From positions 555,930 through 619,929 of the forward strand of contig CP070842.1 in the NCBI GenBank assembly GCA_020342155.1: a stretch of 64,000 nucleotides of DNA, read 5' to 3'. The stretch comes from Dehalococcoidales bacterium (GTDB lineage: Bacteria > Chloroflexota > Dehalococcoidia > Dehalococcoidales > Fen-1064). Made by a program: the position numbers and the translations under genes. The notes under the pieces are model-generated. The model ran no database searches. It was not told where the DNA came from and was given only the letters and a program-made list of their open reading frames with translations. Shown piece after piece: positions 18,729-36,861 of this stretch; within the stretch, counting starts at the first letter, position 1; each line of letters starts with the position of its first letter.

Positions 18729-19331
18729 ATGTATAAGCCGATGAAATGCAAGATCTGCGGGCAGGACAATCCCCTGGAAGCTAGTTTCTGTGGTAGCTGT
18801 GGCGCTGTTCTAGCCGACACGATTGAGTCAGTCGTACCAGAAGCAGCACTCACTCCCTCGCGGGTTGTACCAGCGGTATCTGTTGAGTATGCGGGCTTCT
18901 GGATACGCTTTGCTGCATCCATAATAGATTCGATAATAGTGGAAGCTGTCTATTTTTTATTCGCCTTCTTACTGTATAGGGCAGTAATCGCTGACCTGTA
19001 TTCACCTTTTATCTCCGTATTCTGGTTCCCTATACCTTGGTTGTTACCCTGGTTGTACTACTGGCTCTTCATTGGGTTAAAGGGACAGACTCTGGGCAAG
19101 ATGGCAGTTGGTATTAAAGTGATCAATATCCAAGGTGAAAAACCGGGACTCGGGCTCGCCGCACTCCGAGAAATCGTGGGGAAACTAGTTTCCAGTATCG
19201 TTTTTTGCTTGGGCTATTTGTGGATCGCTTTTGATGAACAAAAGCAAGGCTGGCACGATAAGATTGCCAGTACCTATGTAGTCAAAGTAGAATCCCACAA
19301 TATGAGGGGAGGGTACAATGAAGTGTCCTAG
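18729..19331 (+). CDS. Zinc-ribbon + RDD-family membrane protein
   Basis: CKICGQ...CGSCG zinc ribbon. RDD hallmarks YAGFWIRFAASIIDSII, GQTLGKMAVGIKV and GWHDKIA. Confidence 0.8.
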   Translation: MYKPMKCKICGQDNPLEASFCGSCGAVLADTIESVVPEAALTPSRVVPAVSVEYAGFWIRFAASIIDSIIVEAVYFLFAFLLYRAVIADLYSPFISVFWFPIPWLLPWLYYWLFIGLKGQTLGKMAVGIKVINIQGEKPGLGLAALREIVGKLVSSIVFCLGYLWIAFDEQKQGWHDKIASTYVVKVESHNMRGGYNEVS

Positions 19332-21270
19332 TTGTAATAAAGATAATGATCCCGAAAATAGTTACTGTATCTCCTGCGGAGCTCTCATATCTGAAGAGAT
19401 GCCAGTGCTCCGAGAGGAGATTAGCCATCTGAGACGACTGATCGAACTGATGCAAGAGCGCCTGGTTATCCTGGAACGTACCCAAGGGATTTCTGGACCG
19501 CGACCAGAGCTGGGACCTACTCCTCCAGAAACATTAACCCCCGCCCAGACAGCAGCTCCACCAGCCGGACCAGTACCGGCCGATCTGGCAGTAACACCCC
19601 CTGCCCCTCCCAAATCCCGAACCCCCAGAGCAATAGAACGGGAGTGGGAGCAGATTCTGGGAGGAAGCTGGCTCGCCCGCATAGGTGTCCTTGCCATTAT
19701 CATCGGCGTAGGTTTTTTCCTTAAATACGCCTTTGACCAGAACTGGCTCGGCCCCACCGCCCGAGTTATTCTGGGTGTTGTAGCCGGTCTGATTATGATT
19801 GGTGGCGGCCATTACTGGGGAAAAAAATATCCTACTTTTGCTCAAGCGATTAGTGGCGGGGGTATCGCTCTTCTTTATCTCTCTGTCTTTGCTGCCTACA
19901 CCATGTTTGGTTTAGTCGATTTTTATCCGGCAGTCGCATTATTACTACTCATCAGTATCAGTTCAGCCCTGCTGGCACTACGTTATAACTCGATGGCCCT
20001 GGCTATCATCAGTATCATTGGTGCATTCGTAGCACCCTTTGTGCTATCAGTCGCTACCGGTGGGGCTTCAGGTACCGGCGGTGTTATCGAGGCCAGCCAG
20101 AGCTTCTGGCTCTTGGTGTATGTCATGGTAGTAGACCTGGGTGTCCTCTGGTTGTCTACCTTCCGTAAATGGCGCTGGTTCACCCTTATGGCGCTCGCTG
20201 GCTCCCTGATAGTATTCGGGGTGTGGTACAACCGTTTTGGCGACGAGGTCAGCCTGCTGACCTCGATGGGTAGTCTGACCATTATATTCCTTATCTTCGT
20301 GGCGGCAACCACGCTCTATCACATTATCTGGCGCCGGGTGTCCCGGGATTTTGACTACATATTGATGGCAGTTAACGCTACCTCCTATTTCGGGATAAGC
20401 TACGGACTAATGTGGAACGATTTATCTGAATGGCTCGGGGGCTTCTCTCTACTAATGGCCCTGTTTTACAGCGGGCTTGCCTATATTTTTATCAAAAGAG
20501 GTGCCGTGAACGTCAGGCTCGCCTTTTTCGCCCTGGGCATTACCCTGCTCTTCTTGACGATAGCCATACCTGTCCAGCTTAATGACACGGCGTGGACAAC
20601 AATCGCCTGGGCGGCTCAGGGTACTATTCTCTTATGGCTTTCACTAAAACTCCGGATGCCCCTACTGCGTATCACCAGTTATATTGTTTTTACTGTGACG
20701 TTTATACGGTTGCTGTTCTTTGATACCACAGTGAGCCTGCGTGACTTTACGCCAGTCCTCAACGAGCGTTTCCTGGCTTTCATCTTTGGCATCGTCGCCA
20801 TGTACCTTGCCGGTTACCTTCTGTGGAGAGAAAGAGAGTCTTTGTGGCCACGCGAGCAGACCGCCTGGTCTGTTTACCCGATTTTCATCGGAATTGCCAA
20901 CTTCTTTACTCTCTGGTTGCTGAGCACTGAGGTTTGGGATTTCTTTACGAAACAGCTGAGTACTACGACAGACTGGACCGCCAGAGATGGCCTCCGCAGT
21001 GCCCGGAACCTATCACTCACAGGACTCTGGGCGGGCTATGCCGTGATACTCCTTGTAATTGGCATAACCAGACGTTTACGATTGGTAAGGCTTTCTGCTC
21101 TAGGCCTACTGGTGATACCCATAGTTAAGGTCTTCGTTTATGACGTATTTGCCCTTGAGCAGGTATACCGCATTATCGCCTTTATAGGCCTGGGCATCCT
21201 TCTACTCACCAGCGCCTACCTGTACCAGCGTCACAGGAAAGCTATCGTAGGCTTCTTTACCAAGGAATGA
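19318..21270 (+). CDS. Zinc-ribbon + Pro-rich linker + polytopic DUF2339-like membrane protein
   Basis: CPSCN...CISCG, Pro-rich spacer, then EWEQILGGSWLARIGVLAIIIGVGFFLKYA and more than 10 predicted TM helices. Overlaps the RDD gene by 14 nt. Confidence 0.65.
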   Translation: MKCPSCNKDNDPENSYCISCGALISEEMPVLREEISHLRRLIELMQERLVILERTQGISGPRPELGPTPPETLTPAQTAAPPAGPVPADLAVTPPAPPKSRTPRAIEREWEQILGGSWLARIGVLAIIIGVGFFLKYAFDQNWLGPTARVILGVVAGLIMIGGGHYWGKKYPTFAQAISGGGIALLYLSVFAAYTMFGLVDFYPAVALLLLISISSALLALRYNSMALAIISIIGAFVAPFVLSVATGGASGTGGVIEASQSFWLLVYVMVVDLGVLWLSTFRKWRWFTLMALAGSLIVFGVWYNRFGDEVSLLTSMGSLTIIFLIFVAATTLYHIIWRRVSRDFDYILMAVNATSYFGISYGLMWNDLSEWLGGFSLLMALFYSGLAYIFIKRGAVNVRLAFFALGITLLFLTIAIPVQLNDTAWTTIAWAAQGTILLWLSLKLRMPLLRITSYIVFTVTFIRLLFFDTTVSLRDFTPVLNERFLAFIFGIVAMYLAGYLLWRERESLWPREQTAWSVYPIFIGIANFFTLWLLSTEVWDFFTKQLSTTTDWTARDGLRSARNLSLTGLWAGYAVILLVIGITRRLRLVRLSALGLLVIPIVKVFVYDVFALEQVYRIIAFIGLGILLLTSAYLYQRHRKAIVGFFTKE

Positions 21271-21347: not shown

Positions 21348-22826
21348 TCAGGCACTGACCGGCAGGTAGACGGTGAAGGTAGAGCCTTTCCCTACTTCGC
21401 TTTCAACCTCTATCCTGCCGCCGTGGCGCTCGATAATACCGTGAGCTACGGATAGCCCCAGGCCCACCCCCCTGACTTCTTTCTTGGTATGGAAAAAGGG
21501 AGTGAACAACTCATCCATGTTCTCAGGGGCTATACCACATCCGGTATCCCGAAAGCTCACACGGATATCACCATCCTCATCCAGTGAGACGCTAACAGTA
21601 AGTTTGCCTCCTTCAGACATCGCCTCGATAGCATTGGCTGCCAGATTGACGAATACCTGTCGGAGCTGTTTGGAATCGGCCATTATGACCGGTAGCGGAG
21701 TTATCTCTTCTCTCGATACCTTAATACCCTTTATCTGGGCCTGGTGGTCAACCATCGACACGACCTGAGCAATAATGCTATTCACTTCCACTGGCTGTAA
21801 CACTGGCTCTGTCTGGGAGGCAAAATCAAGGAGGCTATGTACCAGCACAGAACAGTATGTGACAGCCTCTTCAATCTTTAGCAGGCTGGTGATGGTCTCA
21901 TCTTTATTAAACGATCCACGTTCCATTTTCTTACTGAGCAATTTGGTATACGTCAAGGCTCCAGCTAATGGATTGTTTATTTCATGGGCTATGGCAGACG
22001 ACAATTGACCAAGCGCATCCATCTTTTCGGTCTGGACTAACTGCCTCTGGGTACTTCGTAGTTGCTCGATGTAGCTATTCAGTTCTTCATTCAGTGACAG
22101 CAACTCCTCATAAGTAAGCCTTCTGGGAGTAATTGCTTGTGTCTCTTTTTGCGAGTCTATTGCCAGGGAATCCCGTCGGCTAGCCAGTTCAGCCAGCCTG
22201 CGCTGGATTGTGTCTTCGACCGTTTGCCCGAATTCACAGGTGGCACACTGAAAACCGTGGGTGCAGAGTCGATATGAGATAATACCCTCGGCGGCATAGT
22301 GGCAAAGCCCACTATTATCAGGAGGGTTATTGATTGTCCCTAGTGCTGTATCAGACTCTGTTATGCTCTCCTGTGTTATCTTCTCATGCATCATCCGGTC
22401 AAATTTACAGGTAATGCAATCGTGGTTACGTGTGCAGATTTGATGGGATACTACACCGAGCTTCATCCAGACACACTCTTCAGGCTTCACCCCACCACTG
22501 GCAGTTTCAGGATCAGCTTCTGACTTGGCCAACTCGTCTTTCGTTCTCTGTAGCCAGATACGTGTTTCGATATTACCGGGAGCAATTTTAAGAATGGCTT
22601 CGAATTCATCTTGAGCCTCTTGATAACGCCCCGTTTCAAAGTGGGCCTTACCCTGCTCATGGTGGGCCCGGATATTTTTTGGCACCATGGCTATGACCTG
22701 CTCATCAGACAGTTCGACTGTAGCCGTATTTTCAGCCGTTTCCTCGTCCATCACCTTATCTTCCCCTGTGGTCACAGCTTTCTTTCTCTCCACCTTAATT
22801 CTACTGTATTGATTATCAACCGCCAT
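21348..22826 (-). CDS. Sensor histidine kinase: TPR-like helix pair + 2x Cx12Cx5Cx2C module + HisKA + HATPase_c
   Basis: H-box SSAIAHEINNPL with N/G boxes in the C-terminus. Cys modules at aa 118-140 and 175-197. Confidence 0.85.
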   Translation of the reverse strand: MAVDNQYSRIKVERKKAVTTGEDKVMDEETAENTATVELSDEQVIAMVPKNIRAHHEQGKAHFETGRYQEAQDEFEAILKIAPGNIETRIWLQRTKDELAKSEADPETASGGVKPEECVWMKLGVVSHQICTRNHDCITCKFDRMMHEKITQESITESDTALGTINNPPDNSGLCHYAAEGIISYRLCTHGFQCATCEFGQTVEDTIQRRLAELASRRDSLAIDSQKETQAITPRRLTYEELLSLNEELNSYIEQLRSTQRQLVQTEKMDALGQLSSAIAHEINNPLAGALTYTKLLSKKMERGSFNKDETITSLLKIEEAVTYCSVLVHSLLDFASQTEPVLQPVEVNSIIAQVVSMVDHQAQIKGIKVSREEITPLPVIMADSKQLRQVFVNLAANAIEAMSEGGKLTVSVSLDEDGDIRVSFRDTGCGIAPENMDELFTPFFHTKKEVRGVGLGLSVAHGIIERHGGRIEVESEVGKGSTFTVYLPVSA

Positions 22827-23082
22827 CTGATATGCAGCTTATTATGGGCTACCTGCCATGCCTAATTAGAAAACTGTTTGACTAGGCATACTCTACAAAC
22901 AGATACGCCGAGATTACACTCGTAAGTGCATGCTTTGAGAGAGAAGAGAATACCTGAAGACTAATAAAAATACCAGAGGTCTTACAGTTAGAAAGGATGA
23001 CAAATCAAATCAGGTAGGCAGAATATATACAGATACTATACGCAGCACCCGCAATTGAATCATGCACACGGAGCAATAAAGA

Positions 23083-23742
23083 TTACGGCAGGTCTTTCAG
23101 AGTGAGCCAGCCTTTTCTAAACCCGAATAATATTGCTTCAGTACGTGAAGCTACTTCGAGCTTATTGAAAATACTCCCCAGATGGGTCTGAACGACATTC
23201 AAACAAAGGACGAGGCGCTCTGCAATATCATTGTTACTTACACCTTTAGCAACTAATTTCAGCACCTCTACCTCGCGCTCGTTGAGCGGTTCGGTTCCCG
23301 GGACTCCGGCTGGGGTCGGAGATATCAGATGCTCTATAACTCGACGGGCGACTACGGGGTGAAGTACTGCCTCGCCGGCGTACACTGCCCGAATAGCATC
23401 AATCAGTTCATAGATTTTCAGACCCTTCAGCAAGTAGCCAGCTGCTCCCGCTTCTAAGAGGGCAAAAATGTACTGGTCGTAATCATAAGCGGTGAGTACC
23501 AGTACGGCTATGGATGGCTGCAGCTCCTTTATCCTTTTCGTGGCTTCTATGCCATTGAGCTTGGGCATATGGACATCCATTATGACCACATCTGGCTTCA
23601 GCTCCGTGGCTAGCCTGACAGCCTCTTCACCATCACCGGCTTCACCAACTACTTCCATATCTTCTTCACGCTGCACCGACGCACGAGTCAATTCCCGTAC
23701 CATAACGTGGTCTTCGGCCAGTAAAACCCTGATAGTATACAT
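23083..23742 (-). CDS. NarL/LuxR-family response regulator
   Basis: REC (LLAEDH...DVVIMDVHMPKLNG) plus C-terminal LuxR HTH (LNEREVEVLKLVAKGVSNNDIAERL). Confidence 0.9.
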   Translation of the reverse strand: MYTIRVLLAEDHVMVRELTRASVQREEDMEVVGEAGDGEEAVRLATELKPDVVIMDVHMPKLNGIEATKRIKELQPSIAVLVLTAYDYDQYIFALLEAGAAGYLLKGLKIYELIDAIRAVYAGEAVLHPVVARRVIEHLISPTPAGVPGTEPLNEREVEVLKLVAKGVSNNDIAERLVLCLNVVQTHLGSIFNKLEVASRTEAILFGFRKGWLTLKDLP

Positions 23743-23822
23743 TACATTCCCAAATTTACAGTTAGCCTACCGTCGTTATCAAGCGTAAAGCAAGGGAAGC
23801 CATACCCATTTGTATGAGTATA

Positions 23823-24824
23823 CTACGTAGAAGCACCCTCCTCGATCAAGGCGTAGTGGGGTGGGAGCGCCCCGGTAGGACAAATAGCAAAGCACTCTTT
23901 ACAGTCAGCGCATTCTTTGCTGGCTATCTCTGGGAAAAACATGACCTCCCGTTCCGTTCCTCTACCAATAAAGCCTATGGCGTTTTTACCCTTCACCTCA
24001 GCACAGTAACGCACGCATAAACCACATAGAATACAGAAATTCGGTTCTACTTCGAACTTGGTTTCACTTGCCCCGCTTAGCTCGTAATTTCCTTTCGACT
24101 CCAACCCGGATATACCGTATCTCATTCCGTAATTCACCAGTGGTTGGACACCAGGGGCCCGAGCCCACATCAACTCCAACAGCATTTTACGGATTTTAAC
24201 TACCTGTTCCGATTCTGTCTTGACTATGAGTCCATCCTCAACAATGTAGACGCATGAAGTAACCAAACGCGATCTTTGCCCTCTGATTATCTCCACTATG
24301 CACAACCGACAGGCACCATAAGGTGACAGTTTCTCATGGTGACAGAGGGTAGGAATGTCAATTCCAATACTCTGTGCCGCCTCCAGAATGGTCGCCCCTT
24401 GTCGGACCTCAACCTCTCTGTCATCGATAACACAGGTAACGGTCTCCGGTCTTATCTCAACCTGGACCGGCCCCAGAGTCTGGCTAACCAGTTTCTCCAG
24501 ATCATTAAGGTCAAAGGGCTTGGGCAGATAATCAATAACCCCCTCTTTCATCGCCTCTACCGCTGTCTGGACAGAAGGGTAAGCAGTAATAATAATGCCA
24601 TTAAGCTGTGGCTGTTTCGCCCTGGCCTTCCTTAGTACCTCAAGCCCATCTGCTCCCGGCAACCTCAGGTCGAGGATGAGAAGTCCATAGTCCTGCTCCT
24701 CGATTGCTTTCAGCGCCTCGTCCCCTTGCGTGGCACTTTCCACCTGATAACCACCATCGGTTAGCCAGTCCTGGAGCGACTCTCTCATAATCGCTTCGTC
24801 TTCTACTATCAGAATCGGTTTCAT
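23823..24824 (-). CDS. REC domain fused to a NuoG/HydA-N-terminal-like [2Fe-2S] domain plus 2x[4Fe-4S] ferredoxin domain
   Basis: MKPILIVEDE...DLRLPGADG receiver; Cx10Cx2Cx15C (CHHEKLSPYGACRLC...C) 2Fe-2S pattern; CILCGLCVRYC and CADCKECFAICP motifs. GAGGAGG RBS. Confidence 0.8.
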   Translation of the reverse strand: MKPILIVEDEAIMRESLQDWLTDGGYQVESATQGDEALKAIEEQDYGLLILDLRLPGADGLEVLRKARAKQPQLNGIIITAYPSVQTAVEAMKEGVIDYLPKPFDLNDLEKLVSQTLGPVQVEIRPETVTCVIDDREVEVRQGATILEAAQSIGIDIPTLCHHEKLSPYGACRLCIVEIIRGQRSRLVTSCVYIVEDGLIVKTESEQVVKIRKMLLELMWARAPGVQPLVNYGMRYGISGLESKGNYELSGASETKFEVEPNFCILCGLCVRYCAEVKGKNAIGFIGRGTEREVMFFPEIASKECADCKECFAICPTGALPPHYALIEEGAST

Positions 24825-24853
24825 TCGTCTACCTCCTCTTATTTCTCCTCAGC

Positions 24854-26764
24854 TTATCCACGCACGACTTCAGTGCCTTGTGCAACAAATTCTGGTACTT
24901 CCACACCGGAAAGTACAGTAATGGCGCCAAAACGAGCGGGACAAACCTCAAGACAAGTCCCGCACTTGGTGCATTTCTCCTGGTCTATTATATGGATTAG
25001 ATTTTTCCCACCGTCGATAGCCCCTACCGGGCAATTCCTCAGACAAATCATGCACGCCTGACACTTCTCCGGCTCTATCCAGTAATTTATCAACGCCTTA
25101 CAGACACCGGCCGGGCACTGCTTCTTCATAATATGAGCTTCATACTCATCCCGGAAGTACCTGAGCGTGCTCAGCACTGGATTGCAGGCCGTCTGTCCCA
25201 GTGCGCAAAGTGCCGAGTCTCCAAGCACCTCCGGTATTTCGTCCAGCAGCTTAAAGTCTTCTTCGCTGCTTTCCCCTTCGCAAATTCTATTCAGCACCTT
25301 AAGCATCTGGTATATCCCCTCACGGCAGGGCAAACACTTACCACAAGACTCCCCGGCGAGGAAGTTAATAAAATACCTGGCCACATCCACCATGCAGGTG
25401 TCCTCATCCATGACGATCATGCCGCCCGAGCCCATCATAGAACCTACTTTAGTGAGCTCATCGAAATCTACGGGGAGGTTAAGGAACTTATCCGGGATAA
25501 CTCCCCCCGAGGGGCCACCGGTCTGGACTGCCTTGAACTTCTTTCCATCAGGAATTCCACCGCCGATATCGTAAATCACCTCTCGGAGTGTCATTCCCAT
25601 AGGCACTTCAACCAGCCCGGTATTTTTCACCTTGCCAACCAGGGAGAAAATCTTTGTGCCCTTACTGCCTTCGGTCCCGATGTTGGTAAACCATTCAGCA
25701 CCGTTGTTGATAATGAGAGGTACATTGGCCCAGGTCTCCACATTATTCAGATTACTGGGTCTATCCCAGATACCGCTAACCGCAGTGCGGATATATTTCG
25801 GTCTGGGTTCACCAACCCTGCCCTCTATTGCTGTCATTAAAGCACTGGATTCACCCGATACAAAGGCACCAGCACCTCGGTGTATTTTAACGTCAAAATT
25901 AAAACCGGAGCCGAGAATATCCGAACCCAGAAGACCGAGTTCTCGTGCTTGCTCTAGAGCAATATTTAGATTCCCCACAGCTAAGGGATATTCCTGCCGC
26001 ACATAGATGAACCCCTCATGTGAGCCAATAGCGTAGGCACCGATAATCAGGCCTTCCAGTACGCTGTGAGGATTACCCTCAAGAAGGCTCCTGTCCATAT
26101 AGGCCCCAGGGTCGCCTTCGTCAGCATTTACGATAACGTATTTTCTCTCGCCTGGTGCGTCGCGGGTGGTCTCCCACTTTCTTCCAGCCGGGAAACCGCC
26201 ACCCCCTCTGCCCCTTAGATTAGACTCTTTTACCTCTTCCATAACCTCTTCAGGTGTCATCTCTAAAAGGGCTTTTGCCAGGGCGGCATAGCCACCAAGC
26301 GTAATGTAGTCCTCTATATTCGTAGGGTCGATGAGCCTGTTATTGCCAAAAATAACCCGGCTCTGGTGTTTATAGAAGGGTATCTCGCTCTCATGCGCGA
26401 TCTTTTGACCGTCATCATCCTCATACAGCAGACGGTCAACTACCTTCTTTTCGACTAATGTTGTAGAAACAATCTCAGGGACATCATCCGACCTTACTCT
26501 CAGATAGCATATTTCTTCAGGAAAGATGACTACCAAGGTACCCTTCTCACAGAAACCATGGCACCCCGTCCGGCGGATATCCACCTTCTCTTGAAGTCCG
26601 TTACTCTGGATATTGGCAACAAAGGCCTCGGCAACCTTTTCACTGCCGTAAGCATGACATCCCGTACCTGAACAAATGGTTACACATGGTTTGTTTGGGT
26701 CTCTCTTGGCTAGTATTTCCTGTCTTAAGTTCTCCAGGTCAGCGGCTGAGTTTAATCTGCCCAT
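24854..26764 (-). CDS. NuoF/HydB-like NAD(H)-binding FMN Fe-S subunit (N-terminal thioredoxin-like 2Fe-2S, C-terminal 2x[4Fe-4S])
   Basis: GRGGGGFPAGRKW (FMN), GAGAFVSGESSAL (NADH), ESCGKCLPCREG (N3 cluster), CQACMICLRNCP and CTKCGTCLEVCP. Confidence 0.9.
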   Translation of the reverse strand: MGRLNSAADLENLRQEILAKRDPNKPCVTICSGTGCHAYGSEKVAEAFVANIQSNGLQEKVDIRRTGCHGFCEKGTLVVIFPEEICYLRVRSDDVPEIVSTTLVEKKVVDRLLYEDDDGQKIAHESEIPFYKHQSRVIFGNNRLIDPTNIEDYITLGGYAALAKALLEMTPEEVMEEVKESNLRGRGGGGFPAGRKWETTRDAPGERKYVIVNADEGDPGAYMDRSLLEGNPHSVLEGLIIGAYAIGSHEGFIYVRQEYPLAVGNLNIALEQARELGLLGSDILGSGFNFDVKIHRGAGAFVSGESSALMTAIEGRVGEPRPKYIRTAVSGIWDRPSNLNNVETWANVPLIINNGAEWFTNIGTEGSKGTKIFSLVGKVKNTGLVEVPMGMTLREVIYDIGGGIPDGKKFKAVQTGGPSGGVIPDKFLNLPVDFDELTKVGSMMGSGGMIVMDEDTCMVDVARYFINFLAGESCGKCLPCREGIYQMLKVLNRICEGESSEEDFKLLDEIPEVLGDSALCALGQTACNPVLSTLRYFRDEYEAHIMKKQCPAGVCKALINYWIEPEKCQACMICLRNCPVGAIDGGKNLIHIIDQEKCTKCGTCLEVCPARFGAITVLSGVEVPEFVAQGTEVVRG

Positions 26765-26835
26765 GACTCTCTCCTCTTTTTCAATCTCACTTAATAGACA
26801 CTCCGAACAGCGTTTGCTTTCCTATTCTCCATAGC

Positions 26836-27303
26836 CTATTCGCAAGTATCAGCAATCTCATCAAGTTCTTTCCTGGAAGGACTGCTATGATATTCCTCAT
26901 CGACTACCATCACCGGTCCCAGGGCACAGCAGCCAAGACAGTTTACTGTTTCCAGACTGAAGCGCATGTCATCCGAGGTCTCACCCGGTTTAATCTCTAA
27001 TTTCTCTGTTACTCTATCCAGGAGGCGAGGTGCACCACGCACCTGGCAGGCAGTCCCTAAACAGACCGATACCGAGTGTCGTCCTCTTGGTGTCAGACTG
27101 AAGGCTTTATAGAAAGTAGCTATATGATAGATTTGGCTCAAGGGAATTCCGAGCCTCTGGCTGGCCTGCATAAGGGCATCCCTGGGCAACCAGCGGTTTT
27201 CGTGCTGAATGTCGAGAAGCACCTGAATCAGAGAAGACTTGTCACCCTTATATTTGTCTATGATTTCATCGGTTTGAGCAACATCCTGGACCATCTTATT
27301 CAT
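26836..27303 (-). CDS. NuoE/HydC-like [2Fe-2S] subunit
   Basis: CLGTACQVRG...CLGCCALGPV pattern; 155 aa. Confidence 0.9.
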   Translation of the reverse strand: MNKMVQDVAQTDEIIDKYKGDKSSLIQVLLDIQHENRWLPRDALMQASQRLGIPLSQIYHIATFYKAFSLTPRGRHSVSVCLGTACQVRGAPRLLDRVTEKLEIKPGETSDDMRFSLETVNCLGCCALGPVMVVDEEYHSSPSRKELDEIADTCE

Positions 27304-27309
27304 ACCTCC

Positions 27310-28371
27310 TTAGTTTTCACCCCAGTAAGACCACCACCAACTAAGCTCTTTTTTATGTGAAGCCTCTTGTCGGGCGGCCAGCTCGACTGCTCTTTTTGCT
27401 AGCTTCTGCTGGAGGGCGTCGTCCATCATTTGTCCGAATTCACAGGTCTCGCACTGGTAGATACGGGAGCAGAGGCGGTAGGACACGTCATTCTTAAGAG
27501 CATAGCGACACAACCTCTGACTGCCGGGTAACGCCAGTAGTTTTTCCATGGCTGCATCAAGTTCAGAGGAGTCACCGCTAGCCAACTTGTCCTGCATCTC
27601 CTGGTCAAACTCACATGTCATGCAGTCGTAGTTGTTAGTGCAGACGCGATAAGACACCATCCCCATGCTCATCCAGACGCATTGTTTAGGTTTTTCTTCC
27701 CCTGGAGCCAATGCTTCAGTCTCAGGTTCGGCCAGCGTCCTTTTTATCTTCTGAATCCAGACCCTGTTCTCGATATTAGCCGGAGCAACTTCCAGGATAG
27801 CCTGAAATACCCTTAATGCCTCTATGTATCTGCCAGCTTCGAAGAGAGTCTTACCCTGCCTGAGGTGGCCTGGAACCTCCTCAGGAATAACAGCGATAAC
27901 CTCCTCGACCCGAACCTCCTCGACAACAACCTCCTCAACCTTGACCTCTTCTACCTTAACTGGCTCGTCTATAATCTCCTTAGTACCTGCCCGCGGTGTT
28001 ATTTCAATCTGTACCGGCCCGAGAGTCTCCCTGATTAGCTTCTCCATTTCATTAAGGTCAAAAGGCTTGGGCATATAATCAACAGCCCCTATTTTCATCG
28101 CCTCTACGGCTGTCTCAACTGAAGGATAGGCAGTAATGATGATTCCCTTGAGTTGGGGCCTTCTCTCTTTAGCTTCCCGCAATACCTCAAGCCCGTCTTT
28201 CCCCGGCAGCCTCAGGTCAAGAACGACAACACCGAAGTCATGTTCCTCGATAGTTTTCAGTGCTTCACTCCCCTCCTCTGCAGTTTCTACCTGATAGCCC
28301 CCATCCTTGAGCCAGTCTTTTAAAGACTCTCTCATAATTGCTTCGTCTTCTACTATCAATATCGGTTTCAT
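27310..28371 (-). CDS. REC domain + (K/V/R)VEEV repeat linker + TPR-like helix pair + 2x Cx12Cx5Cx2C module
   Basis: The receiver is nearly identical to that of 23823..24824. Cys modules at aa 238-260 and 295-317 (numbered from ORF start 28392). Start set at MKPILIVEDE (ATG 28369-28371, GGGGG 7 nt upstream). Confidence 0.75.
   Translation of the reverse strand: MKPILIVEDEAIMRESLKDWLKDGGYQVETAEEGSEALKTIEEHDFGVVVLDLRLPGKDGLEVLREAKERRPQLKGIIITAYPSVETAVEAMKIGAVDYMPKPFDLNEMEKLIRETLGPVQIEITPRAGTKEIIDEPVKVEEVKVEEVVVEEVRVEEVIAVIPEEVPGHLRQGKTLFEAGRYIEALRVFQAILEVAPANIENRVWIQKIKRTLAEPETEALAPGEEKPKQCVWMSMGMVSYRVCTNNYDCMTCEFDQEMQDKLASGDSSELDAAMEKLLALPGSQRLCRYALKNDVSYRLCSRIYQCETCEFGQMMDDALQQKLAKRAVELAARQEASHKKELSWWWSYWGEN
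27898..27957 (-). repeat. 4 x 15-nt in-frame tandem repeat encoding KVEEV-KVEEV-VVEEV-RVEEV
   Basis: Plus strand reads aacctcctcgac-type units with 15-nt periodicity. Confidence 0.8.
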
Positions 28372-28449
28372 CTTCTCGCCCCCTTCACTCATTTTTTAAC
28401 TCCTTAAGACAACTAGCTCGTCTATCTGATAACTCCCACACTATTATCA

Positions 28450-28466
28450 TGCAATTTTCTCGCCAA
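28450..28466 (-). promoter_or_regulatory. Sigma-54 (-24/-12) promoter: TTGGCGAGAAAATTGCA
   Basis: The reverse complement of 28450..28466 matches TGGCAC-N5-TTGCW at GG-N10-GC with TGGC and TTGCA intact (2 mismatches, AC to GA). It lies ~80 nt upstream of the REC/Cys-rich gene, with sigma-54 and a sigma-54 activator encoded immediately upstream. Confidence 0.65.
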
Positions 28467-28471
28467 AGAAT

Positions 28472-28500
28472 AAGGCTGCCCTGATATTTAGGGCAGCCTT
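28472..28500 (-). terminator. Perfect 11-bp inverted repeat (AAGGCTGCCCT-N7-AGGGCAGCCTT): terminator of the ntrC-like gene, or an activator site
   Basis: GC-rich hairpin 42 nt after the stop of 28542..29903, followed on the minus strand by AUUCUUU. It lies only 5 nt upstream of the -24 element. Confidence 0.5.
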
Positions 28501-28541: not shown

Positions 28542-29903
28542 TCAGCGAGTGCCTATTTTTTTTACATCCAATCCATACGCCTTAATTTTATTATAGAGAG
28601 TCATTCTCGCGATTCCTAAGACCGCGGCAGCTTCACTGTAGTTGCCGTTGGTCTCAGTGAGTACATGCAGAATGTGGTTCTTCTCAACCTCATCAAGACT
28701 TTTGCCTGCCAGTGTTACCCTTACTAACTGCGAGTTTTCCTGAACCAGATCTCCCACCTCGATACAGGCATTTTTAGATAAAATGACCGCTCGCTCAATT
28801 GCGTTTTCTAGCTCTCTAACATTGCCAGGCCACTCATATTTTAGGAGAAAATCGGTAGCCTTTGGAGAATATTCGGTGATTTCCTTCTGGTTCTCCGTGG
28901 CAAACTTCTCCAGGAAGTACTGGGCTAAGAGAGGTATATCTTCTTTTCTCTCTCTTAATGGAGGCAGGTCAATCGAAACTACGTTCAAACGATAATAAAG
29001 GTCTTCACGAAATGTTTCATCGGTCACGGCCCTCTTAATATCTTTATTTGTCGCTGAAACAACCCTGACATCAGTCTTAACCAGTTCGTTACCACCAACC
29101 CTGGTGAATTCCTTCTCTTCCAGTACTCTCAACAGGTGACCCTGAATATTAGCACTCATGTCACCAATCTCATCCAGAAAGAGAGTGCCTTTATTAGCGA
29201 CCTCGAACTTACCCTTTTTTTGCGCATAAGCTCCGGTGAAGGACCCCTTTTCATGGCCAAACAGTTCACTCTCTAGAAGACTCTCAGGCAAGGCAACGCA
29301 ATTAACGGCGACAAATGGCTTACTCCGACGATGACTCTGGGAGTGAATAGAGCGGGCCACAAGTTCCTTGCCGGTGCCACTCTCACCTGTAATCAATACA
29401 GTAGCATTGCTCCTGGCTACAACCTTAATTATCTCAACTACCTGTTGCATCTTGGGACTTTTAGCGGTGATATTTTCAAATTCGTAACGCTCCTTTAGCT
29501 TCTTGTGCAAGGAAATGTTCTCCTCAACCAATCCCTGATGCTCAACCAATTTCTCAAGTAGAATCGCCAACCTTTCTGGGCAGAAAGGCTTCTCGATATA
29601 GTCATAGGCACCTTCTCTCATAGCAGAAATGGCGGTTGGGATGCTCGCGAAAGCGGTAATGATTATCACGTTAACAACCGGGTTCATCTCCTTTGCTTTC
29701 TTCATAAACTCTATCCCATCCATACCCGGCATCACGAGATCACTAATGATAATCCCTATCTGCTCCTCTTCCAGTATCTCCAGGGCTTGAGAGCCGCTCT
29801 CCGCAGTAAACACATGATAACCGGCATCATTTAGCCAGTCACAAAGCGATTCGCGAACAATAGCTTCATCGTCAACAACGAGGATATTAGCTTCTCTACT
29901 CAT
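28542..29903 (-). CDS. NtrC-family sigma-54-dependent response regulator (REC + AAA+ + Fis-type HTH)
   Basis: GESGTGKE Walker A, GSFTGA (GAFTGA-type sigma-54 contact loop), C-terminal HTH ...AAAVLGIARMTLYNKIK. Confidence 0.9.
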   Translation of the reverse strand: MSREANILVVDDEAIVRESLCDWLNDAGYHVFTAESGSQALEILEEEQIGIIISDLVMPGMDGIEFMKKAKEMNPVVNVIIITAFASIPTAISAMREGAYDYIEKPFCPERLAILLEKLVEHQGLVEENISLHKKLKERYEFENITAKSPKMQQVVEIIKVVARSNATVLITGESGTGKELVARSIHSQSHRRSKPFVAVNCVALPESLLESELFGHEKGSFTGAYAQKKGKFEVANKGTLFLDEIGDMSANIQGHLLRVLEEKEFTRVGGNELVKTDVRVVSATNKDIKRAVTDETFREDLYYRLNVVSIDLPPLRERKEDIPLLAQYFLEKFATENQKEITEYSPKATDFLLKYEWPGNVRELENAIERAVILSKNACIEVGDLVQENSQLVRVTLAGKSLDEVEKNHILHVLTETNGNYSEAAAVLGIARMTLYNKIKAYGLDVKKIGTR

Positions 29904-31836
29904 GGTAAGCCTCCAAGCGGACAGTAAAGGTAGTTCCCTCCCCCTCTTTACTATCTACCTCAATTCTTCCCTGATGTCGTTGGATAATTCCATAGGCCAC
30001 AGCTAGTCCTAAACCTACCCCTTTACCCTTCTCTTTTGTGGTAAAGAAGGGAGTAAAGAGCTTGTGCAGGTTTTCTTGAGAGATACCTGACCCTGTATCC
30101 TGAACCTCTATCTTAATCTGGTCGTCATTAACTACTGAGGTACGGAGGACTAACTCACCCCCCTTTGACATTGCTTGGATGGCATTCATGATAAGGTTTG
30201 TAAGAACCTGATGAAGCTGGTCAAAATCAGCCATGACTTTAGGCAAGTCAGGGCTATATTCTTTTCTCACCTCAACATTCTGCAGACCGGCCTGGTGACC
30301 AATGATGTTAAAAGCTCGCTCGATAACCTGGTTTATGTCTACCAGCCTGAGGGTTGGTGTTGACTGGCGAGCAAAATCCAAGAGATTACGAATTAACCTG
30401 GAACTACGGGTAAGCTCTGAGTCCATTTTTGTCAGGTAGTCCAGCGATTTTTCCTTACTGATGGTATTATTAGATATGTTTTTCTCCAGCAACTTGGTAT
30501 AGACAAGGACACCGGCCAGAGGATTATTGACCTCGTGAGCAATAGAGGCTGCCATCTGGCCTAAGGAGGTTAGCTTCTCGGCCTGGATAAGGTCTTCCTG
30601 AGTAGCCTCCAGTTTCTTGAGTAAATAAGGCCAACACATATTAATCTCTGCCAATTCCTGGCCGATGGCAACAGCCAACTCTCTACAGGAAGCGTAACCA
30701 CAAGCTCCACAATCCATCCGGTAACTGGGACTAACCCTGCCAATTTGCTCAAGGAGACCTCTGACTTCTTCTTCGCTGGGAGTTGGTAGGTAGATACTGC
30801 GCCCAGTAAATTTACGGTTGAGGTCAATCGTAGCGTAACGCTCGATGTCCTTCTCAGTCTGGGTGGGGTCTACATTACTCCGAGCGTATCTAGCAATAAG
30901 CTCCTTTCGACTAAAACCGCTTAGTTCATTATCAATAAACGGTCCATCAATACACCCGTGACAAAAATACAGATTAGCAAATCTAGCAGTGATGTCACCT
31001 TGAGCAAATTCCCCAAGAATCTTGACAACATATTCCCTACCGTGAACACTCATGACATCATTCTTCATTATGTCATCAGTTAATCCCATAACCTTAAGCA
31101 GGCCGCCTGATATGGCAAATAGCCGACCAAGCTTGGATATAGGGCCAGCAAACTGCTCGTCCTGCTCACTGCTCGGGACAATTCCTTTATCAGCAAACAT
31201 TTCCTTTAATTCCGTAAAGGTTAGCACAGCATCCACCATACCATCAGCATTCTTATCGGCGATTTCTGCTTTCTTAGCAACACACGGACCAATGTAGACC
31301 ACCTTAGCCTGCGTGTTGTGATATTGCTTGATTATTCTACCCATGGCAATTGTAGGTGAAACAATGGGTGCCAGATTACTGAGTAGTGAGGGATGGTACT
31401 TCTCGATGTAGGTTACTACCGCCGGGCAGTTAGATGAGATTATAGGCCCGTCTTTAACTTCGTCTAGTAGTTGGATGTATTCCCCACTGATTAGCTCGGC
31501 ACCGAAGGCTGCCTCCATCACATTGCTGAATCCCAGCTTCTTAAGAGAGGTTACAAATTGCCCAGGCTTACAATTGAGCAAGGCAGCTGGGAAGGAAGAG
31601 GAAACTACAGCTACCACATCAGGGTGGTTAGCCAATAGCTGCCGAACTAATTCGACATCGCTCTCCGCTTGCTTTGCCCCGGTAACACAGACACGTATAC
31701 AGTTGCCACAATCAATACAACGTTCCTTTATTACCTCAGCCAACCCTTCTCTTATCTTGATTGCCTTAGTCGGACAGTGACGTACACAGGCGTAGCACCC
31801 CTGACACTTCTCTCGGTCGGTATAGACAACGCTCAT
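29896..31836 (-). CDS. Histidine kinase with N-terminal 2x[4Fe-4S] + [FeFe]-hydrogenase H-domain-like sensor + Cx2Cx4Cx16C motif
   Basis: CQGCYACVRHCP and CIDCGNCIRVC; H-cluster-type motifs SSNCPAV, IGPCVAKKAE, FCHGCIDGP; CGACGYASC-x16-C; then SIAHEVNNPL H-box and an HATPase_c domain. Confidence 0.8.
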   Translation of the reverse strand: MSVVYTDREKCQGCYACVRHCPTKAIKIREGLAEVIKERCIDCGNCIRVCVTGAKQAESDVELVRQLLANHPDVVAVVSSSFPAALLNCKPGQFVTSLKKLGFSNVMEAAFGAELISGEYIQLLDEVKDGPIISSNCPAVVTYIEKYHPSLLSNLAPIVSPTIAMGRIIKQYHNTQAKVVYIGPCVAKKAEIADKNADGMVDAVLTFTELKEMFADKGIVPSSEQDEQFAGPISKLGRLFAISGGLLKVMGLTDDIMKNDVMSVHGREYVVKILGEFAQGDITARFANLYFCHGCIDGPFIDNELSGFSRKELIARYARSNVDPTQTEKDIERYATIDLNRKFTGRSIYLPTPSEEEVRGLLEQIGRVSPSYRMDCGACGYASCRELAVAIGQELAEINMCWPYLLKKLEATQEDLIQAEKLTSLGQMAASIAHEVNNPLAGVLVYTKLLEKNISNNTISKEKSLDYLTKMDSELTRSSRLIRNLLDFARQSTPTLRLVDINQVIERAFNIIGHQAGLQNVEVRKEYSPDLPKVMADFDQLHQVLTNLIMNAIQAMSKGGELVLRTSVVNDDQIKIEVQDTGSGISQENLHKLFTPFFTTKEKGKGVGLGLAVAYGIIQRHQGRIEVDSKEGEGTTFTVRLEAYHE

Positions 31837-32951
31837 TAGTCCCCCTCACTTTCATACCGAACATACTTACTCTTGCACCGAGAAGCAGGCAATCTCAGCT
31901 CTTTCCTCAGGTCGGCCACCGAGCGACGAGAGATGGTCACACCGAATTTTTCCTGCAGCTCAGTCTTTATCGCGTCATCTGAGGAAAGTCCTTCCTCGGT
32001 TTCAAGAAGTTGTTTGATTAGTTCTTTCTTAAACTTCTTCGATCTGGGGAAAAAGTGCTTAAGGGGAACCTCTGTACCCAAAGGTGTCTCTAGGCTTTTC
32101 CTGTTGATGGCACGACTAACAGAGCTGGGAGCAAGCCCAATTTTCTCAGCCAGTTCTTTCTGACTGAAGGGTAATAGAGATTTAGGATCACCACACTCCA
32201 GATATAACGCTTGCTTATCAACAATACCCTGCAGTATTTGACTTACCGTGTCCTTGCAGCTATTAACTGATTCTAGTCTCTTGAATAGCTGCTTAGCTTC
32301 ACTGACCTCAGTCTCAGTGAAAACCCCTCTTACCCTCAACTCCTCAAAGCTTCCGTAATCAATCCGATATCTTCCCCGGGCAAAGGGGGCGGATAAGTAT
32401 CCAATAGTAAAGCTATCCCCCCGTCTCTCTACCGAGGCAATTTTAGAATAGCGAATTTGCTCTGAACTGAAAGCGGAGGGATGATAGAACTCACTTAGAA
32501 TAGAGAAGTCATTGACAAGGTCATTTATCTCTCGGACTTCTGAAATACTCAGACCACATTCCTCAGCAATCTCTTCCAGGACCATCCCTGACTCAGGAAA
32601 CAAGAAGTAACGCTTGAATTTCTCCAGTCCCAACTTCTCTACTAGACGAACGATTCGCGCCTTGTTTTCTAGAAGGGATTCCACGTCAAGAGAGCCTTTG
32701 TCGGCTGTGGTTTCTTCTCTAAGCTGAAAATATTGGGATGAAATATCGGTCTTGGGAACTCTCTGGTAATGGATGAGTTTCTCTTCCTGATAAAGCCTCA
32801 CAAAGAGAGGAGTTTTTTCTAGCTCGATGACAAGCTGAATGAAGGTTTGCTCAGGCATTTCCAGCAACTTGGCCTGTTCTATGAGGAAGACTTGTTTTAA
32901 TTCCTGCCTGATTTGTTGGGATTGTCTTTGCTCTGTTATCATACTAGGCAT
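31836..32951 (-). CDS. rpoN: Short (371 aa) sigma-54 (RpoN) family sigma factor
   Basis: Gln-rich region I (EQRQSQQIRQELKQ...LLEMPEQTF..ELEKTPLF), HTH (LAPSSVSRAINRKSLETPLGTEVPLKHFF), and an RpoN-box-like GVTISRRSVADLRKELRLP. Overlaps the kinase start by 1 nt. Confidence 0.8.
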   Translation of the reverse strand: MPSMITEQRQSQQIRQELKQVFLIEQAKLLEMPEQTFIQLVIELEKTPLFVRLYQEEKLIHYQRVPKTDISSQYFQLREETTADKGSLDVESLLENKARIVRLVEKLGLEKFKRYFLFPESGMVLEEIAEECGLSISEVREINDLVNDFSILSEFYHPSAFSSEQIRYSKIASVERRGDSFTIGYLSAPFARGRYRIDYGSFEELRVRGVFTETEVSEAKQLFKRLESVNSCKDTVSQILQGIVDKQALYLECGDPKSLLPFSQKELAEKIGLAPSSVSRAINRKSLETPLGTEVPLKHFFPRSKKFKKELIKQLLETEEGLSSDDAIKTELQEKFGVTISRRSVADLRKELRLPASRCKSKYVRYESEGD

Positions 32952-34747: not shown

Positions 34748-34777
34748 GAATCAGGTCTAATAAAGGAGGTGAAATCA

Positions 34778-34969
34778 ATGGAGACTGTACTGACAATCCT
34801 GATGTTCCTGGGAATTTACGTCGTCTTTCCTCTACTCGTAGCCACTATCGTGTGCGGTATAGCCCTGTTGGCGAGACGTCGTGCTAGGAGTGTGGAGATA
34901 GCCAAACGTGCCAAGGCTCCGACTGCAGCCAAGAAGGTAGGGCTCGCTCATCATCCTGCTAAGACTTAG
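34778..34969 (+). CDS. Small (63 aa) single-TM protein with basic tail, tandem paralog A1
   Basis: AAGGAGG-N8-ATG. The first 31 codons differ from A2 by 8 synonymous and 1 nonsynonymous change. Confidence 0.7.
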   Translation: METVLTILMFLGIYVVFPLLVATIVCGIALLARRRARSVEIAKRAKAPTAAKKVGLAHHPAKT

Positions 34970-34999
34970 TACGAGATTATCAATAAGGAGATGAAATCA

Positions 35000-35182
35000 A
35001 TGGAGGCTGTACTGACAATCCTGATGTTCCTGGGAATCTACGTCGTCTTTCCCCTACTCGTGGCCACCATCGTATGTGGTATAGCTCTGCTGGGGAAGCG
35101 GCGTGCTACGAGGGCCGCAAGGGCTAAAGCCCCAGCAGCCAGAGAGGCCGAAGAACTCACCCATGAGCCTGCTAAGGCGTAG
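35000..35182 (+). CDS. Small (60 aa) single-TM protein with basic tail, tandem paralog A2
   Basis: AAGGAG-N9-ATG; METVLTILMFLGIYVVFPLLVATIVCGIALL core shared with A1. Confidence 0.7.
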   Translation: MEAVLTILMFLGIYVVFPLLVATIVCGIALLGKRRATRAARAKAPAAREAEELTHEPAKA

Positions 35183-35366: not shown

Positions 35367-36221
35367 ATGAGTGATAAAGCTATCCTTTTCAACACCACCA
35401 GATGCATTGCGTGTCGCGGTTGCCAGGTGGCCTGCAAGCAGTGGAATGAGACAGACGAGGTGATTCCCACTGAACAGAACAGCGTACGATCAGTAAACCG
35501 TGGCAGTTATGAAAATCCCCCGGACCTCTCACCAAAGACTTGGATGACGATTAAATTCATTGAGAAACCGCAGGGCGATTCCATAGAGTGGTTTTTCAAT
35601 CGTCGTAGCTGTATGCATTGTACTGAGGCTGCCTGTGTCGAGGTGTGCCCCTCTGGGGCTCTTTATCACAACGAAGATGGGTTTGTCACCTATGATAAAG
35701 ATAAATGTACAGGCTGTGGTTATTGTGAGCAATACTGCCCGTTTGATGTTCCTCGATTAGACACAAATATTGTCACAGGCGTGGGTAAAATGGACAAGTG
35801 TACTCTCTGCACGACCCCAAGCCTCAATCGTCTCTCGGCAGGTGAAGAACCTGCGTGTGTCAATACCTGTCCCACTCACGCTCTAGTCTTCGGTGATAGG
35901 GACGAGCTTATCTCCGAAGCTAAAACACTGGTCACCGGTCTGCAGACAACCGGCTCTAGGGTCTATCCCAAGGCAACGCTTTACGGAGAACAGGAACTCG
36001 GTGGCCTCCACGTTCTTTATGTTCTGACAGACTCGCCTGGAGTCTACGGCTTGCCAGAGAATCCTCAGTTCCCTATCGCGGCCACACTCCAGAGAGATGT
36101 CTTCCGTCCCCTTACTAAGGTGGTGTGGCTCATGGTCGCTGGTGGCCTGGCACTGAACGTCTTGATTGCCTGGTTCAGGCAGAGGCAACTTAGTGAGGAG
36201 AACTCTCATGGAAATGATTGA
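35367..36221 (+). CDS. fdnH: FdnH/HybA-like 4x[4Fe-4S] electron-transfer subunit with C-terminal TM anchor
   Basis: CIACRGCQVACKQWN, CMHCTEAACVEVCP, CTGCGYCEQYCP, CTLC...CVNTCP; C-terminal hydrophobic helix. Confidence 0.85.
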   Translation: MSDKAILFNTTRCIACRGCQVACKQWNETDEVIPTEQNSVRSVNRGSYENPPDLSPKTWMTIKFIEKPQGDSIEWFFNRRSCMHCTEAACVEVCPSGALYHNEDGFVTYDKDKCTGCGYCEQYCPFDVPRLDTNIVTGVGKMDKCTLCTTPSLNRLSAGEEPACVNTCPTHALVFGDRDELISEAKTLVTGLQTTGSRVYPKATLYGEQELGGLHVLYVLTDSPGVYGLPENPQFPIAATLQRDVFRPLTKVVWLMVAGGLALNVLIAWFRQRQLSEENSHGND

Positions 36222-36861
36222 ACGCTATACACGAGCAGCGAGATGGTTTCACTGGCTTATTGCCATCGTATTTTTTGAGATGGCACTGTCAGGGCTACTC
36301 ATCTTTCTCCCCTGGGTTCCTTCAGGCACGATAGGCATGTGGACTCGACTTATCCACCGTATTGGCGCAGTGTTTCTCGTTGGCGCTCCGGCAATATTCA
36401 TGCTTTTTGCCTGGCAACGTTCATGGGATTTCATTAAGGAAGCATTCACCTGGGGTAAAGAAGACCTCGAATGGCTGCGAGCCGCACCAGGCTACTATTT
36501 TGGCGGTGACCCGAGGATGATGCCACCCCAGGGTTATATTAACACCGGGATGAAGCTATACCGAATATCTATCATCCTCGGTGGTGGCGTATTTCTTATT
36601 ACGGGATTTATCATGACATTTCTCAGGGGAATTGTACCTCCGGCGGTCTTCCAGTGGTGCCTCGTCCTGCACGATGTCACCTTTATCGTGGCTATCGGTA
36701 TGTTCCTTTTGCACTTTCAACTCGGCGTTTTTCACCCTAGAATGGATGAGTCTCTCTTGTCTATGTTCGATGGCAAGGTCTCAGGTGTCTACGCCAAGTC
36801 CCACCATGGCAAGTGGTATGACGGAGTTAATAATAGAGATGACGATAACTCCTCCGAATAA
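36208..36861 (+). CDS. fdnI: FdnI-like di-heme cytochrome b membrane subunit
   Basis: RYTRAARWFHWLIAIVFF..LSGLLIF, 4 TM with conserved His. Start set at ATG 36208 (GAGGAG upstream), overlapping fdnH-like by 14 nt. Confidence 0.7.
   Translation: MEMIERYTRAARWFHWLIAIVFFEMALSGLLIFLPWVPSGTIGMWTRLIHRIGAVFLVGAPAIFMLFAWQRSWDFIKEAFTWGKEDLEWLRAAPGYYFGGDPRMMPPQGYINTGMKLYRISIILGGGVFLITGFIMTFLRGIVPPAVFQWCLVLHDVTFIVAIGMFLLHFQLGVFHPRMDESLLSMFDGKVSGVYAKSHHGKWYDGVNNRDDDNSSE

Follow-up and report, generated by a model that had tools for sequence, protein, structure and literature searches.

The question raised by this locus is what a cysteine motif, present twice in a soluble histidine kinase and twice in a receiver protein of the same Dehalococcoidales bacterium, contributes to two proteins that otherwise belong to two-component signalling. 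The window analysed here is a stretch of 64,000 nucleotides (nt) from assembly GCA_020342155.1 (contig CP070842.1, positions 555,930 to 619,929 of the forward strand), and a regular-expression search of its six-frame translation returned exactly four matches to C-x12-C-x5-C-x2-C, compared with a chance expectation of 0.09 from Cys frequency and with residue shuffles that gave a mean of 0.055 and a maximum of 1. All four fall where a preliminary description, made from the sequence alone, had placed them. We find that they belong to a conserved, previously unnamed domain of ~100 residues that consists of two homologous Cys4 modules, and we discuss this domain, tentatively and at slightly less than even confidence, as a tandem Cys4 metal module that couples redox enzyme complexes to two-component signalling.

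One twin Cys4 domain in a kinase and in a receiver protein

The two proteins, the domain and its modules are located in the window as follows (aa, amino acids; HMM, hidden Markov model; REC, receiver).

21348-22826, minus strand: soluble histidine kinase, 492 aa, with TPR, twin Cys4 domain, coiled-coil linker, HisKA and HATPase_c
22572-22670, minus strand: TPR of the kinase, aa 53-85 (Pfam TPR_2, 28.7 bits)
22185-22487, minus strand: twin Cys4 domain of the kinase, aa 114-214 (HMM domain aa 120-214, E = 4e-29)
22407-22475, minus strand: kinase module 1, aa 118-140, CVWMKLGVVSHQICTRNHDCITC
22236-22304, minus strand: kinase module 2, aa 175-197, CHYAAEGIISYRLCTHGFQCATC
27310-28392, minus strand: REC-TPR-Cys2, the receiver protein, 360 aa, with REC, Glu/Val-rich linker, TPR, twin Cys4 domain and WWWSYW tail
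27397-27693, minus strand: twin Cys4 domain of REC-TPR-Cys2, aa 234-332 (HMM E = 2e-35)
27613-27681, minus strand: REC-TPR-Cys2 module 1, aa 238-260, CVWMSMGMVSYRVCTNNYDCMTC
27442-27510, minus strand: REC-TPR-Cys2 module 2, aa 295-317, CRYALKNDVSYRLCSRIYQCETC

Because module 1 and module 2 of one protein are mutually homologous (BLASTP E = 3e-8, 30% identity over 33 residues), we regard the pair as an internal duplication. REC-TPR-Cys2 contains no Cys besides the eight of its motifs, and eight of the ten Cys of the kinase lie in motifs. The domain HMM matches only the kinase and REC-TPR-Cys2 open reading frames (ORFs), with no third copy in the window, and together with the motif positions and the module homology it bears out the earlier proposal of a duplicated module common to both proteins. 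The helix pair ahead of each Cys pair, previously called TPR-like, is a genuine TPR: in the kinase it scores above the Pfam cut-off (TPR_2, PF07719, 28.7 bits against 27, E 1.1e-6), and in REC-TPR-Cys2 it is sub-threshold (20.4 bits, aa 175-206) and aligns column for column with the kinase repeat.

The partner domains are conventional. The receiver of REC-TPR-Cys2 is full length (Response_reg, PF00072, 106 bits, 1.6e-30, aa 11-120, covering profile positions 1-110 of 111), and a Glu/Val low-complexity linker, VKVEEVKVEEVVVEEVRVEEV, lies between receiver and TPR (aa ~141-165, nt 27898-27972, minus strand). The kinase has HisKA (Pfam 1.8e-10, 41.1 bits, aa 272-339), HATPase_c (7.4e-30, 104.1 bits, aa 384-490) and an H-box with its His, SSAIAHEINNPL, and is by these features a histidine kinase; its N-terminal region matches no Pfam sensor-domain family besides TPR.

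With the kinase TPR-Cys region as query we retrieved 76 close homologues, all with the Cys spacing kept, the majority of them stand-alone TPR plus twin-Cys4 proteins of ~210 aa from Dehalococcoidia metagenome bins. A profile of the Cys region alone, searched against 1.84 billion cluster representatives, found 460 at E <= 1e-3, 133 of these at E <= 1e-10. Across 78 aligned sequences that share 23-61% identity with the query, the eight Cys are the sole invariant columns, and all eight are retained in 247 of 251 unique full-length domains, so that the conservation of the Cys, previously noted for the two window proteins, extends to the family. Named taxa with the domain are Dehalococcoidia, Desulfobacterota, WOR-3, Eisenbacteria and one metagenome-assembled genome (MAG) of Acidobacteriota, most of them anaerobic lineages; the TPR ahead of the domain is restricted to the Dehalococcoidia branch.

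No named family accommodates the domain, in agreement with the preliminary description. Nothing in Pfam-A or NCBIfam covers the Cys region, whether the two proteins or the isolated Cys regions are searched; sequence and profile searches of the PDB returned TPR matches or nothing; and a Foldseek search of the confident Cys-domain model (below) against the PDB gave no match. A confident match to a known zinc-ribbon or iron-sulfur (Fe-S) family, fixed beforehand as the outcome that would speak against novelty, was sought and none was found. No Fer4-type family (PF00037, PF12838 and relatives) matched either protein, or its Cys region taken alone, with the limit relaxed to E <= 10, and the identical search detected Fer4 domains in neighbouring proteins. 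PF04060, 'Putative Fe-S cluster', a family with the spacing Cx2Cx4Cx16C, matches a neighbouring hydrogenase-like kinase (2e-8) and neither of the TPR-Cys2 proteins. In the source annotation the relatives are called 'hypothetical protein' or, for longer relatives, 'glycine cleavage system protein H', and literature searches on the Cys spacing, on GcvH with a cysteine-rich N-terminus and on HymD returned nothing relevant.

The only family to give any score was zf-CHY (PF05495), at 13.5-17.9 bits against a cut-off of 31.3 (E = 0.004-0.1). The zf-CHY domain at the N-terminus of Pirh2/RCHY1 resembles the modules in its C-x12/13-C-x5-C-x2-C spacing and in having an aromatic amino acid two places ahead of the third Cys. 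It differs in that the window copies lack the His ligands of CHY sites, the remaining CHY/CTCHY domain does not continue here, and CHY sites are cross-braced across the motif whereas single modules occur alone in the present family. Comparison by hhalign with the N-terminus of human RCHY1 returned a probability of 0.7% over 28 aligned columns. As the Pfam scores also lie below the gathering threshold, we rejected an identity with zf-CHY and did not file the domain there.

A first AlphaFold model, built from the 76 close homologues, was confidently helical for the kinase TPR only; the predicted local distance difference test score (pLDDT) of the Cys region was below 50 and that part was discarded. 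With a diverse alignment, the 99-residue domain of REC-TPR-Cys2 was modelled at a pLDDT of 85.9 and a predicted template-modelling score of 0.72 as two equivalent modules, each laid out as bridge residue, C1, short helix, loop, second bridge residue and C2, with C3-x2-C4 at the N-terminus of a long helix. The modelled geometry would bring the four thiolates of a module together. From this model and from the invariance of the Cys we infer that each module is an autonomous metal site in which C1 and C2 close a 12-residue loop and C3-x2-C4 caps the long helix. Single modules occur alone after NuoG-type 2Fe-2S/4Fe-4S domains, in a 434-aa protein of locus L094 and in P0201; we treat the modules as autonomous units because in L094 a single type-2 module directly follows such Fe-S domains, and a cross-braced eight-Cys site spanning both modules was set aside as unlikely since single modules exist alone.

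Two further readings touch on these features, and we consider both highly improbable. The C-x2-C at a helix N-terminus has the geometry of a redox-active dithiol and would suit a metal-free thiol-disulfide switch, but four Cys of fixed spacing per module, retained almost throughout the family, point to a tetrahedral or cubane site. Since receivers are usually followed by DNA-binding outputs, the domain might instead be the DNA-binding zinc-finger output of a response regulator; we rejected this in view of the acidity of the domain, which has a net charge of -5 in each of the window copies, and because the domain also stands N-terminally in kinases and GcvH-like proteins.

The receiver-fused gene, its promoter and its neighbours

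REC-TPR-Cys2 lies between a set of regulatory genes and genes for NuoE/F/G(N)-like proteins. In order of transcription, the features of this region are as follows.

31836-32951, minus strand: short sigma-54-like protein, 371 aa (Sigma54_DBD 1e-22; TIGR02395 on the C-terminal third only)
29896-31836, minus strand: [FeFe]-hydrogenase-like sensor histidine kinase, with 2x4Fe-4S, H-cluster domain, PF04060 FeS, HisKA and HATPase
28542-29903, minus strand: NtrC-type sigma-54 activator with REC, AAA+ and HTH_8 (Pfam)
28472-28500, minus strand: terminator-like hairpin with an 11-pair stem, 7 of the pairs G-C, and then a T-rich tail; ends the upstream regulatory operon
28450-28465, minus strand: sigma-54-type -24/-12 element, TGGCGAGAAAATTGCA, 58 nt upstream of the REC-TPR-Cys2 ATG
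27322-27339, minus strand: WWWSYW tail of REC-TPR-Cys2 (protein end SWWWSYWGEN), candidate docking motif for the NuoE/F/G(N)-like complex
26836-27303, minus strand: NuoE-like protein, downstream of REC-TPR-Cys2 (Pfam, NCBIfam)
24854-26764, minus strand: NuoF-like protein, downstream of REC-TPR-Cys2 (Pfam, NCBIfam)
23823-24824, minus strand: REC-NuoG(N)-like protein with 2Fe-2S and 2x4Fe-4S and no catalytic domain (Pfam, NCBIfam)

Genomic context was compared in 79 species genomes; nearly all loci come from MAGs of one class, and the association counts ignore kinship. L009, a locus of Dehalococcoidia MAG W156, shows synteny with the window, its proteins being 90-94% identical. The four-gene order of sigma-54-like protein, [FeFe]-hydrogenase-like kinase, NtrC and, last, REC-TPR-Cys2 is a conserved cassette of the REC-fused form (48 loci), with the sigma-54-like gene first in most related loci. 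Upstream sequence is available for 43 related loci, and in 40 of them the gene immediately ahead of REC-TPR-Cys2, in the same orientation, encodes NtrC. By Pfam and NCBIfam the 371-aa sigma-54-like protein has no activator-interacting or core-binding region, its DNA-binding domain being the only part recognised, and a sigma-70-like promoter precedes its gene. The hydrogenase-like kinase matches Fe_hyd_lg_C (6.9e-50) and FeS (2e-8), and TIGR04105 at 3e-55, below cut-off; it is a putative H2 or redox sensor, and three receivers are encoded within its 4 kb neighbourhood.

The element ahead of REC-TPR-Cys2 has the -24 GG, the -12 GC and the canonical spacing of a sigma-54 promoter (TGGCAC-N5-TTGCW), next to an activator gene. 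The pattern TGGC-N8-TGC[AT] occurs upstream of 34 of 48 REC-type orthologues and of 0 of 24 stand-alone genes, where a chance match would be expected at roughly 0.01 per locus (estimated from equal base frequencies), and in most of the listed REC-type loci the element reads TGGCAAGAAAATTGCA. As a count within the window the consensus is uninformative, since 31 matches with up to two mismatches were found and 31 were expected; we therefore give the site weight from its position and its conservation across loci only. Because this conserved element follows a terminator-like hairpin and NtrC is adjacent, REC-TPR-Cys2 is most likely, as read from sequence, the first product of a sigma-54 operon under the control of the neighbouring NtrC.

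The same arrangement raises the possibility that the Cys2 protein binds the adjacent activator and tunes it by redox or metal state, as negative feedback from the first operon product. Its place immediately behind NtrC in most Dehalococcoidia loci, the presence of NtrC genes nearby in WOR-3 and GcvH-type loci, and the position of REC-TPR-Cys2 as the first gene behind the sigma-54 box would all suit such a modulator. There are precedents among modulators of sigma-54 activators: in PspA/PspF and NifL/NifA the modulator gene likewise lies beside the activator gene, and PspA is itself the first product of a sigma-54 operon. These proteins share no homology with the domain, and unlike them the stand-alone and kinase-fused forms are not beside sigma-54 activators and are tied instead to LuxR-type regulators. 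Adjacency is equally well explained if the gene is merely a regulated target of NtrC, and we consider a modulator of NtrC very unlikely.

Downstream, the NuoE-like ATG lies 6 nt past the REC-TPR-Cys2 stop codon on the same strand. The receiver carried by the NuoG(N)-like subunit is 70% identical to the receiver of REC-TPR-Cys2; in most related loci this subunit is ~210 aa long and has no receiver, and a receiver on an electron-transfer subunit is unusual. The WWWxYW tail is present in 10 of 10 related loci with close NuoE/NuoF homologues and in 0 of 66 without (Fisher p = 1e-11, phylogeny ignored), with L072 as the sole tail-less exception among the NuoE/NuoF loci. In other lineages the downstream genes encode HdrD-like, HdrA-like or MvhD proteins, or further receiver proteins.

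These associations could also mean that the domain is an electron-transfer subunit, a ferredoxin-like two-cluster domain in the electron path of NuoE/F/G(N)-, Hdr- or Fdh-type enzymes, to which the signalling fusions are secondary. The 6-nt spacing to NuoE and the co-occurrence of the tail with NuoEF are what such a subunit would show, as are the module directly after NuoG-type clusters in L094 and P0201 and the HdrD/HdrA/MvhD genes of other lineages; 2x[4Fe-4S] ferredoxins, moreover, arise from the same kind of tandem Cys4 duplication. We nevertheless regard this reading as decidedly unlikely. Many REC-type genes have no redox-enzyme gene downstream on the same strand, the stand-alone form has a LuxR two-component system as its neighbour and no redox enzyme in the vicinity, and a domain that is N-terminal in a kinase and C-terminal to a receiver is placed as signalling modules typically are.

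Two further observations concern other parts of the window. Two tandem small ORFs of 66 and 63 aa (34769-34969 and 34991-35182, plus strand) have near-identical N-terminal hydrophobic segments (MKSME.VLTILMFLGIYVVFPLLVATIVCGIALL) and lie upstream of genes for a 4Fe-4S protein and a cytochrome b (35367-36861). A DUF2339 membrane protein (19318-21270, plus strand) has an N-terminal CxxC...CxxC zinc-ribbon-like motif, CPSCNKDNDPENSYCISCG, and adjoins an RDD-family protein (18729-19331).

Kinase, stand-alone and GcvH-fused forms

The kinase has a different regulatory neighbour, which directly precedes it.

23083-23742, minus strand: LuxR/NarL-type response regulator (Response_reg and GerE), directly upstream of the TPR-Cys2 kinase

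The Cys/sensor region of the kinase is nearest to the ~210-aa stand-alone proteins (61-64% identity), and its kinase core shares 47% identity with that of the hydrogenase-like kinase. Because of these two identities, the window kinase is, as judged by sequence comparison, the stand-alone protein joined to a duplicated kinase core, a fusion particular to this lineage and encoded beside a LuxR regulator; one orthologue was found among 71 longer relatives. The stand-alone gene lies divergently beside a LuxR-type regulator in 20 of the 21 loci with upstream sequence, these regulators are 60-79% identical to the product of the window gene at 23083-23742, and a HisKA_3 kinase follows the regulator in the three loci with called genes (L001, L004 and L006). 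The wider neighbourhood of the stand-alone form, beside its LuxR two-component system, is housekeeping, with no redox enzyme nearby. By a Rosetta-stone argument, the fusion points to kinases as partners of the stand-alone protein.

Outside Dehalococcoidia the commonest fusion partner of the domain is GcvH. In the 71 longer relatives a GcvH-like domain follows the twin module in 41 and a receiver stands in front in 13, and P0201 combines modules with NuoG-type 2Fe-2S/4Fe-4S domains and GcvH. Two of the fusions, P0111 and P0124, were read by eye and have no Lys in the stretch that matches the ESVK lipoyl-lysine motif; they are therefore not canonical GcvH, and the label 'glycine cleavage system protein H' is probably misleading for them. 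The window proteins, in turn, differ from the glycine cleavage H protein (PF01597) in having no GcvH domain, and PF01597 does not cover the Cys domain.

The regulatory theme of the window recurs around the GcvH-type genes. The gene string kinase, NtrC, Peptidase_M54 and Cys2-GcvH was found in three unrelated contigs. This string, of a histidine kinase, an NtrC-type activator, an archaemetzincin-like Peptidase_M54 and a twin-Cys4-GcvH-like protein, recurs in other phyla (L089, L091, L092 and L094). In L094 a perfect sigma-54 box precedes genes for NuoG(N)-module-GcvH, Cys2-GcvH, NuoE, a 2Fe-2S protein and NuoF, and sigma-54-like boxes also lie ahead of GcvH-type genes in L089, L088 and L008.

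A probable metal site and a proposed role

If each module binds a metal, we lean slightly towards a redox-active Fe-S cluster, judging this a little better than an even prospect and zinc, though a serious contender, clearly less probable. Four considerations lie behind this leaning. The ligand pattern, one remote Cys and a cluster of three spaced by 5 and 2 residues, mirrors cubane signatures such as the Cx2Cx5C of FNR, Wbl and EndoIII-type [4Fe-4S] sites; a module sits after NuoG-type clusters; a cytoplasmic kinase has this domain as its sole candidate sensor; and the named taxa are mostly anaerobic lineages. The likeness to FNR, WhiB-like proteins and EndoIII/MutY extends to the grouping of three close Cys (2, 5) with one remote Cys, and differs in that the order is mirrored here (C-x5-C-x2-C) and that Pfam and PDB profile searches show no homology.

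We infer a signalling or docking function for the domain, as a link between two-component systems and Fe-S flavoenzymes of the NuoEF, Hdr or Fdh type. If the metal centre is Fe-S, the domain would inform two-component signalling of the redox state, or the electron load, of NuoE/F/G(N)-type and related flavin/Fe-S complexes. The gene architecture of the circuit can be read directly from the window, and the functions that we attach to it are conjectural: the hydrogenase-like kinase would activate NtrC, which would fire the sigma-54 promoter so that REC-TPR-Cys2 is made first and then NuoE, NuoF and REC-NuoG(N). REC-TPR-Cys2 may then dock on the NuoE/F/G(N) complex through its TPR and WWWxYW tail, and may integrate phosphorylation with the state of the metal site as a feedback or regulatory subunit. 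In the kinase copy the domain would be the only candidate input of a cytoplasmic sensor kinase.

Several observations weigh against this coupling of redox complexes to signalling. Classical Fe-S signatures such as Cys-Pro are absent from the domain. An aromatic-cored Cys4 module of ~23 residues that folds in AlphaFold with no cofactor present would equally be typical of a zinc finger, and the faint resemblance to the zf-CHY pattern points the same way. Many REC-TPR-Cys2 loci have no NuoEF neighbour and the gene is apparently monocistronic there, so that a NuoEF-specific role cannot be general.

The likeness to zinc fingers bears on the main rival, in which each module holds one structural Zn(Cys)4 and TPR-Cys2 is an adaptor that tethers kinases, receivers and GcvH-like domains and senses nothing. 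Beyond the very small size of the tandem modules, their conserved aromatic residues and a C-x2-C at a helix N-terminus, it can draw on zf-CHY, a zinc finger, as the only database echo, albeit sub-threshold; on a His beside C1 of module 2 in many GcvH-type copies (CRH, CLHH); and on the several architectures in which the domain occurs, as adaptor domains do. Yet the relation to zf-CHY fails both the gathering threshold and hhalign, and the spacing of 12, 5 and 2 lacks the two short knuckles that Zn(Cys)4 sites usually have. A structural zinc site would also leave the cytoplasmic kinase with a single TPR as its sole other sensing element, and it accounts poorly for the mostly anaerobic distribution and for the fusion directly after NuoG-type Fe-S domains. 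We consider a purely structural zinc adaptor somewhat unlikely. At the other end, the most specific form of the proposal, that REC-TPR-Cys2 is a phosphorylation-controlled Fe-S regulatory subunit that docks by WWWxYW on a NuoE/F/G(N)-type flavoprotein complex, whose NuoG-like subunit bears a second receiver in this lineage, and that the twin Cys4 domain is a new class of Fe-S redox sensor, is doubtful and in our view unlikely as a whole.

Among described systems, NreB and AirS are the closest in kind to the window kinase: both are soluble histidine kinases with an N-terminal four-Cys Fe-S cluster as O2 or redox sensor, the Cys lying inside a PAS domain with the spacing C-x2-C-x11-C-x2-C. The window kinase shares the soluble layout and the N-terminal Cys domain, with a putative cofactor, and differs in having neither a PAS match (Pfam, NCBIfam) nor sequence similarity to them. 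The receiver-fused locus can be set beside the putative sensory [FeFe] hydrogenases of HydS type linked to kinases, which form group C in Greening's classification, in that it encodes an H-cluster domain fused to a histidine kinase near NuoE/NuoF-like genes, with REC-TPR-Cys2 embedded there. We know of no described HydS system that contains the twin Cys4 domain. No description of the four-gene cassette was found in the literature, and a search for sensory hydrogenases with Dehalococcoidia and sigma-54 returned nothing relevant. A Cys-rich metal module that feeds two-component signalling is a known kind of device; in the databases and literature searched, we met no description of this family or its fold, of the fusions to GcvH and REC, or of the conserved setting with sigma-54 and the hydrogenase-like kinase.

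For annotation, the consequence is that hundreds of proteins named 'glycine cleavage system protein H' have at their N-terminus a domain that had gone unrecognised. For the biology of organohalide-respiring and syntrophic anaerobes, the locus offers a testable entry into H2 and redox sensing and into the control of electron-bifurcating modules, which are poorly understood. If the most specific form of the proposal is true, a hydrogen-sensing two-component system would control an electron-transfer or bifurcating enzyme both transcriptionally and at the protein level, and the twin Cys4 domain would represent a widespread new class of Fe-S redox sensor in anaerobes.

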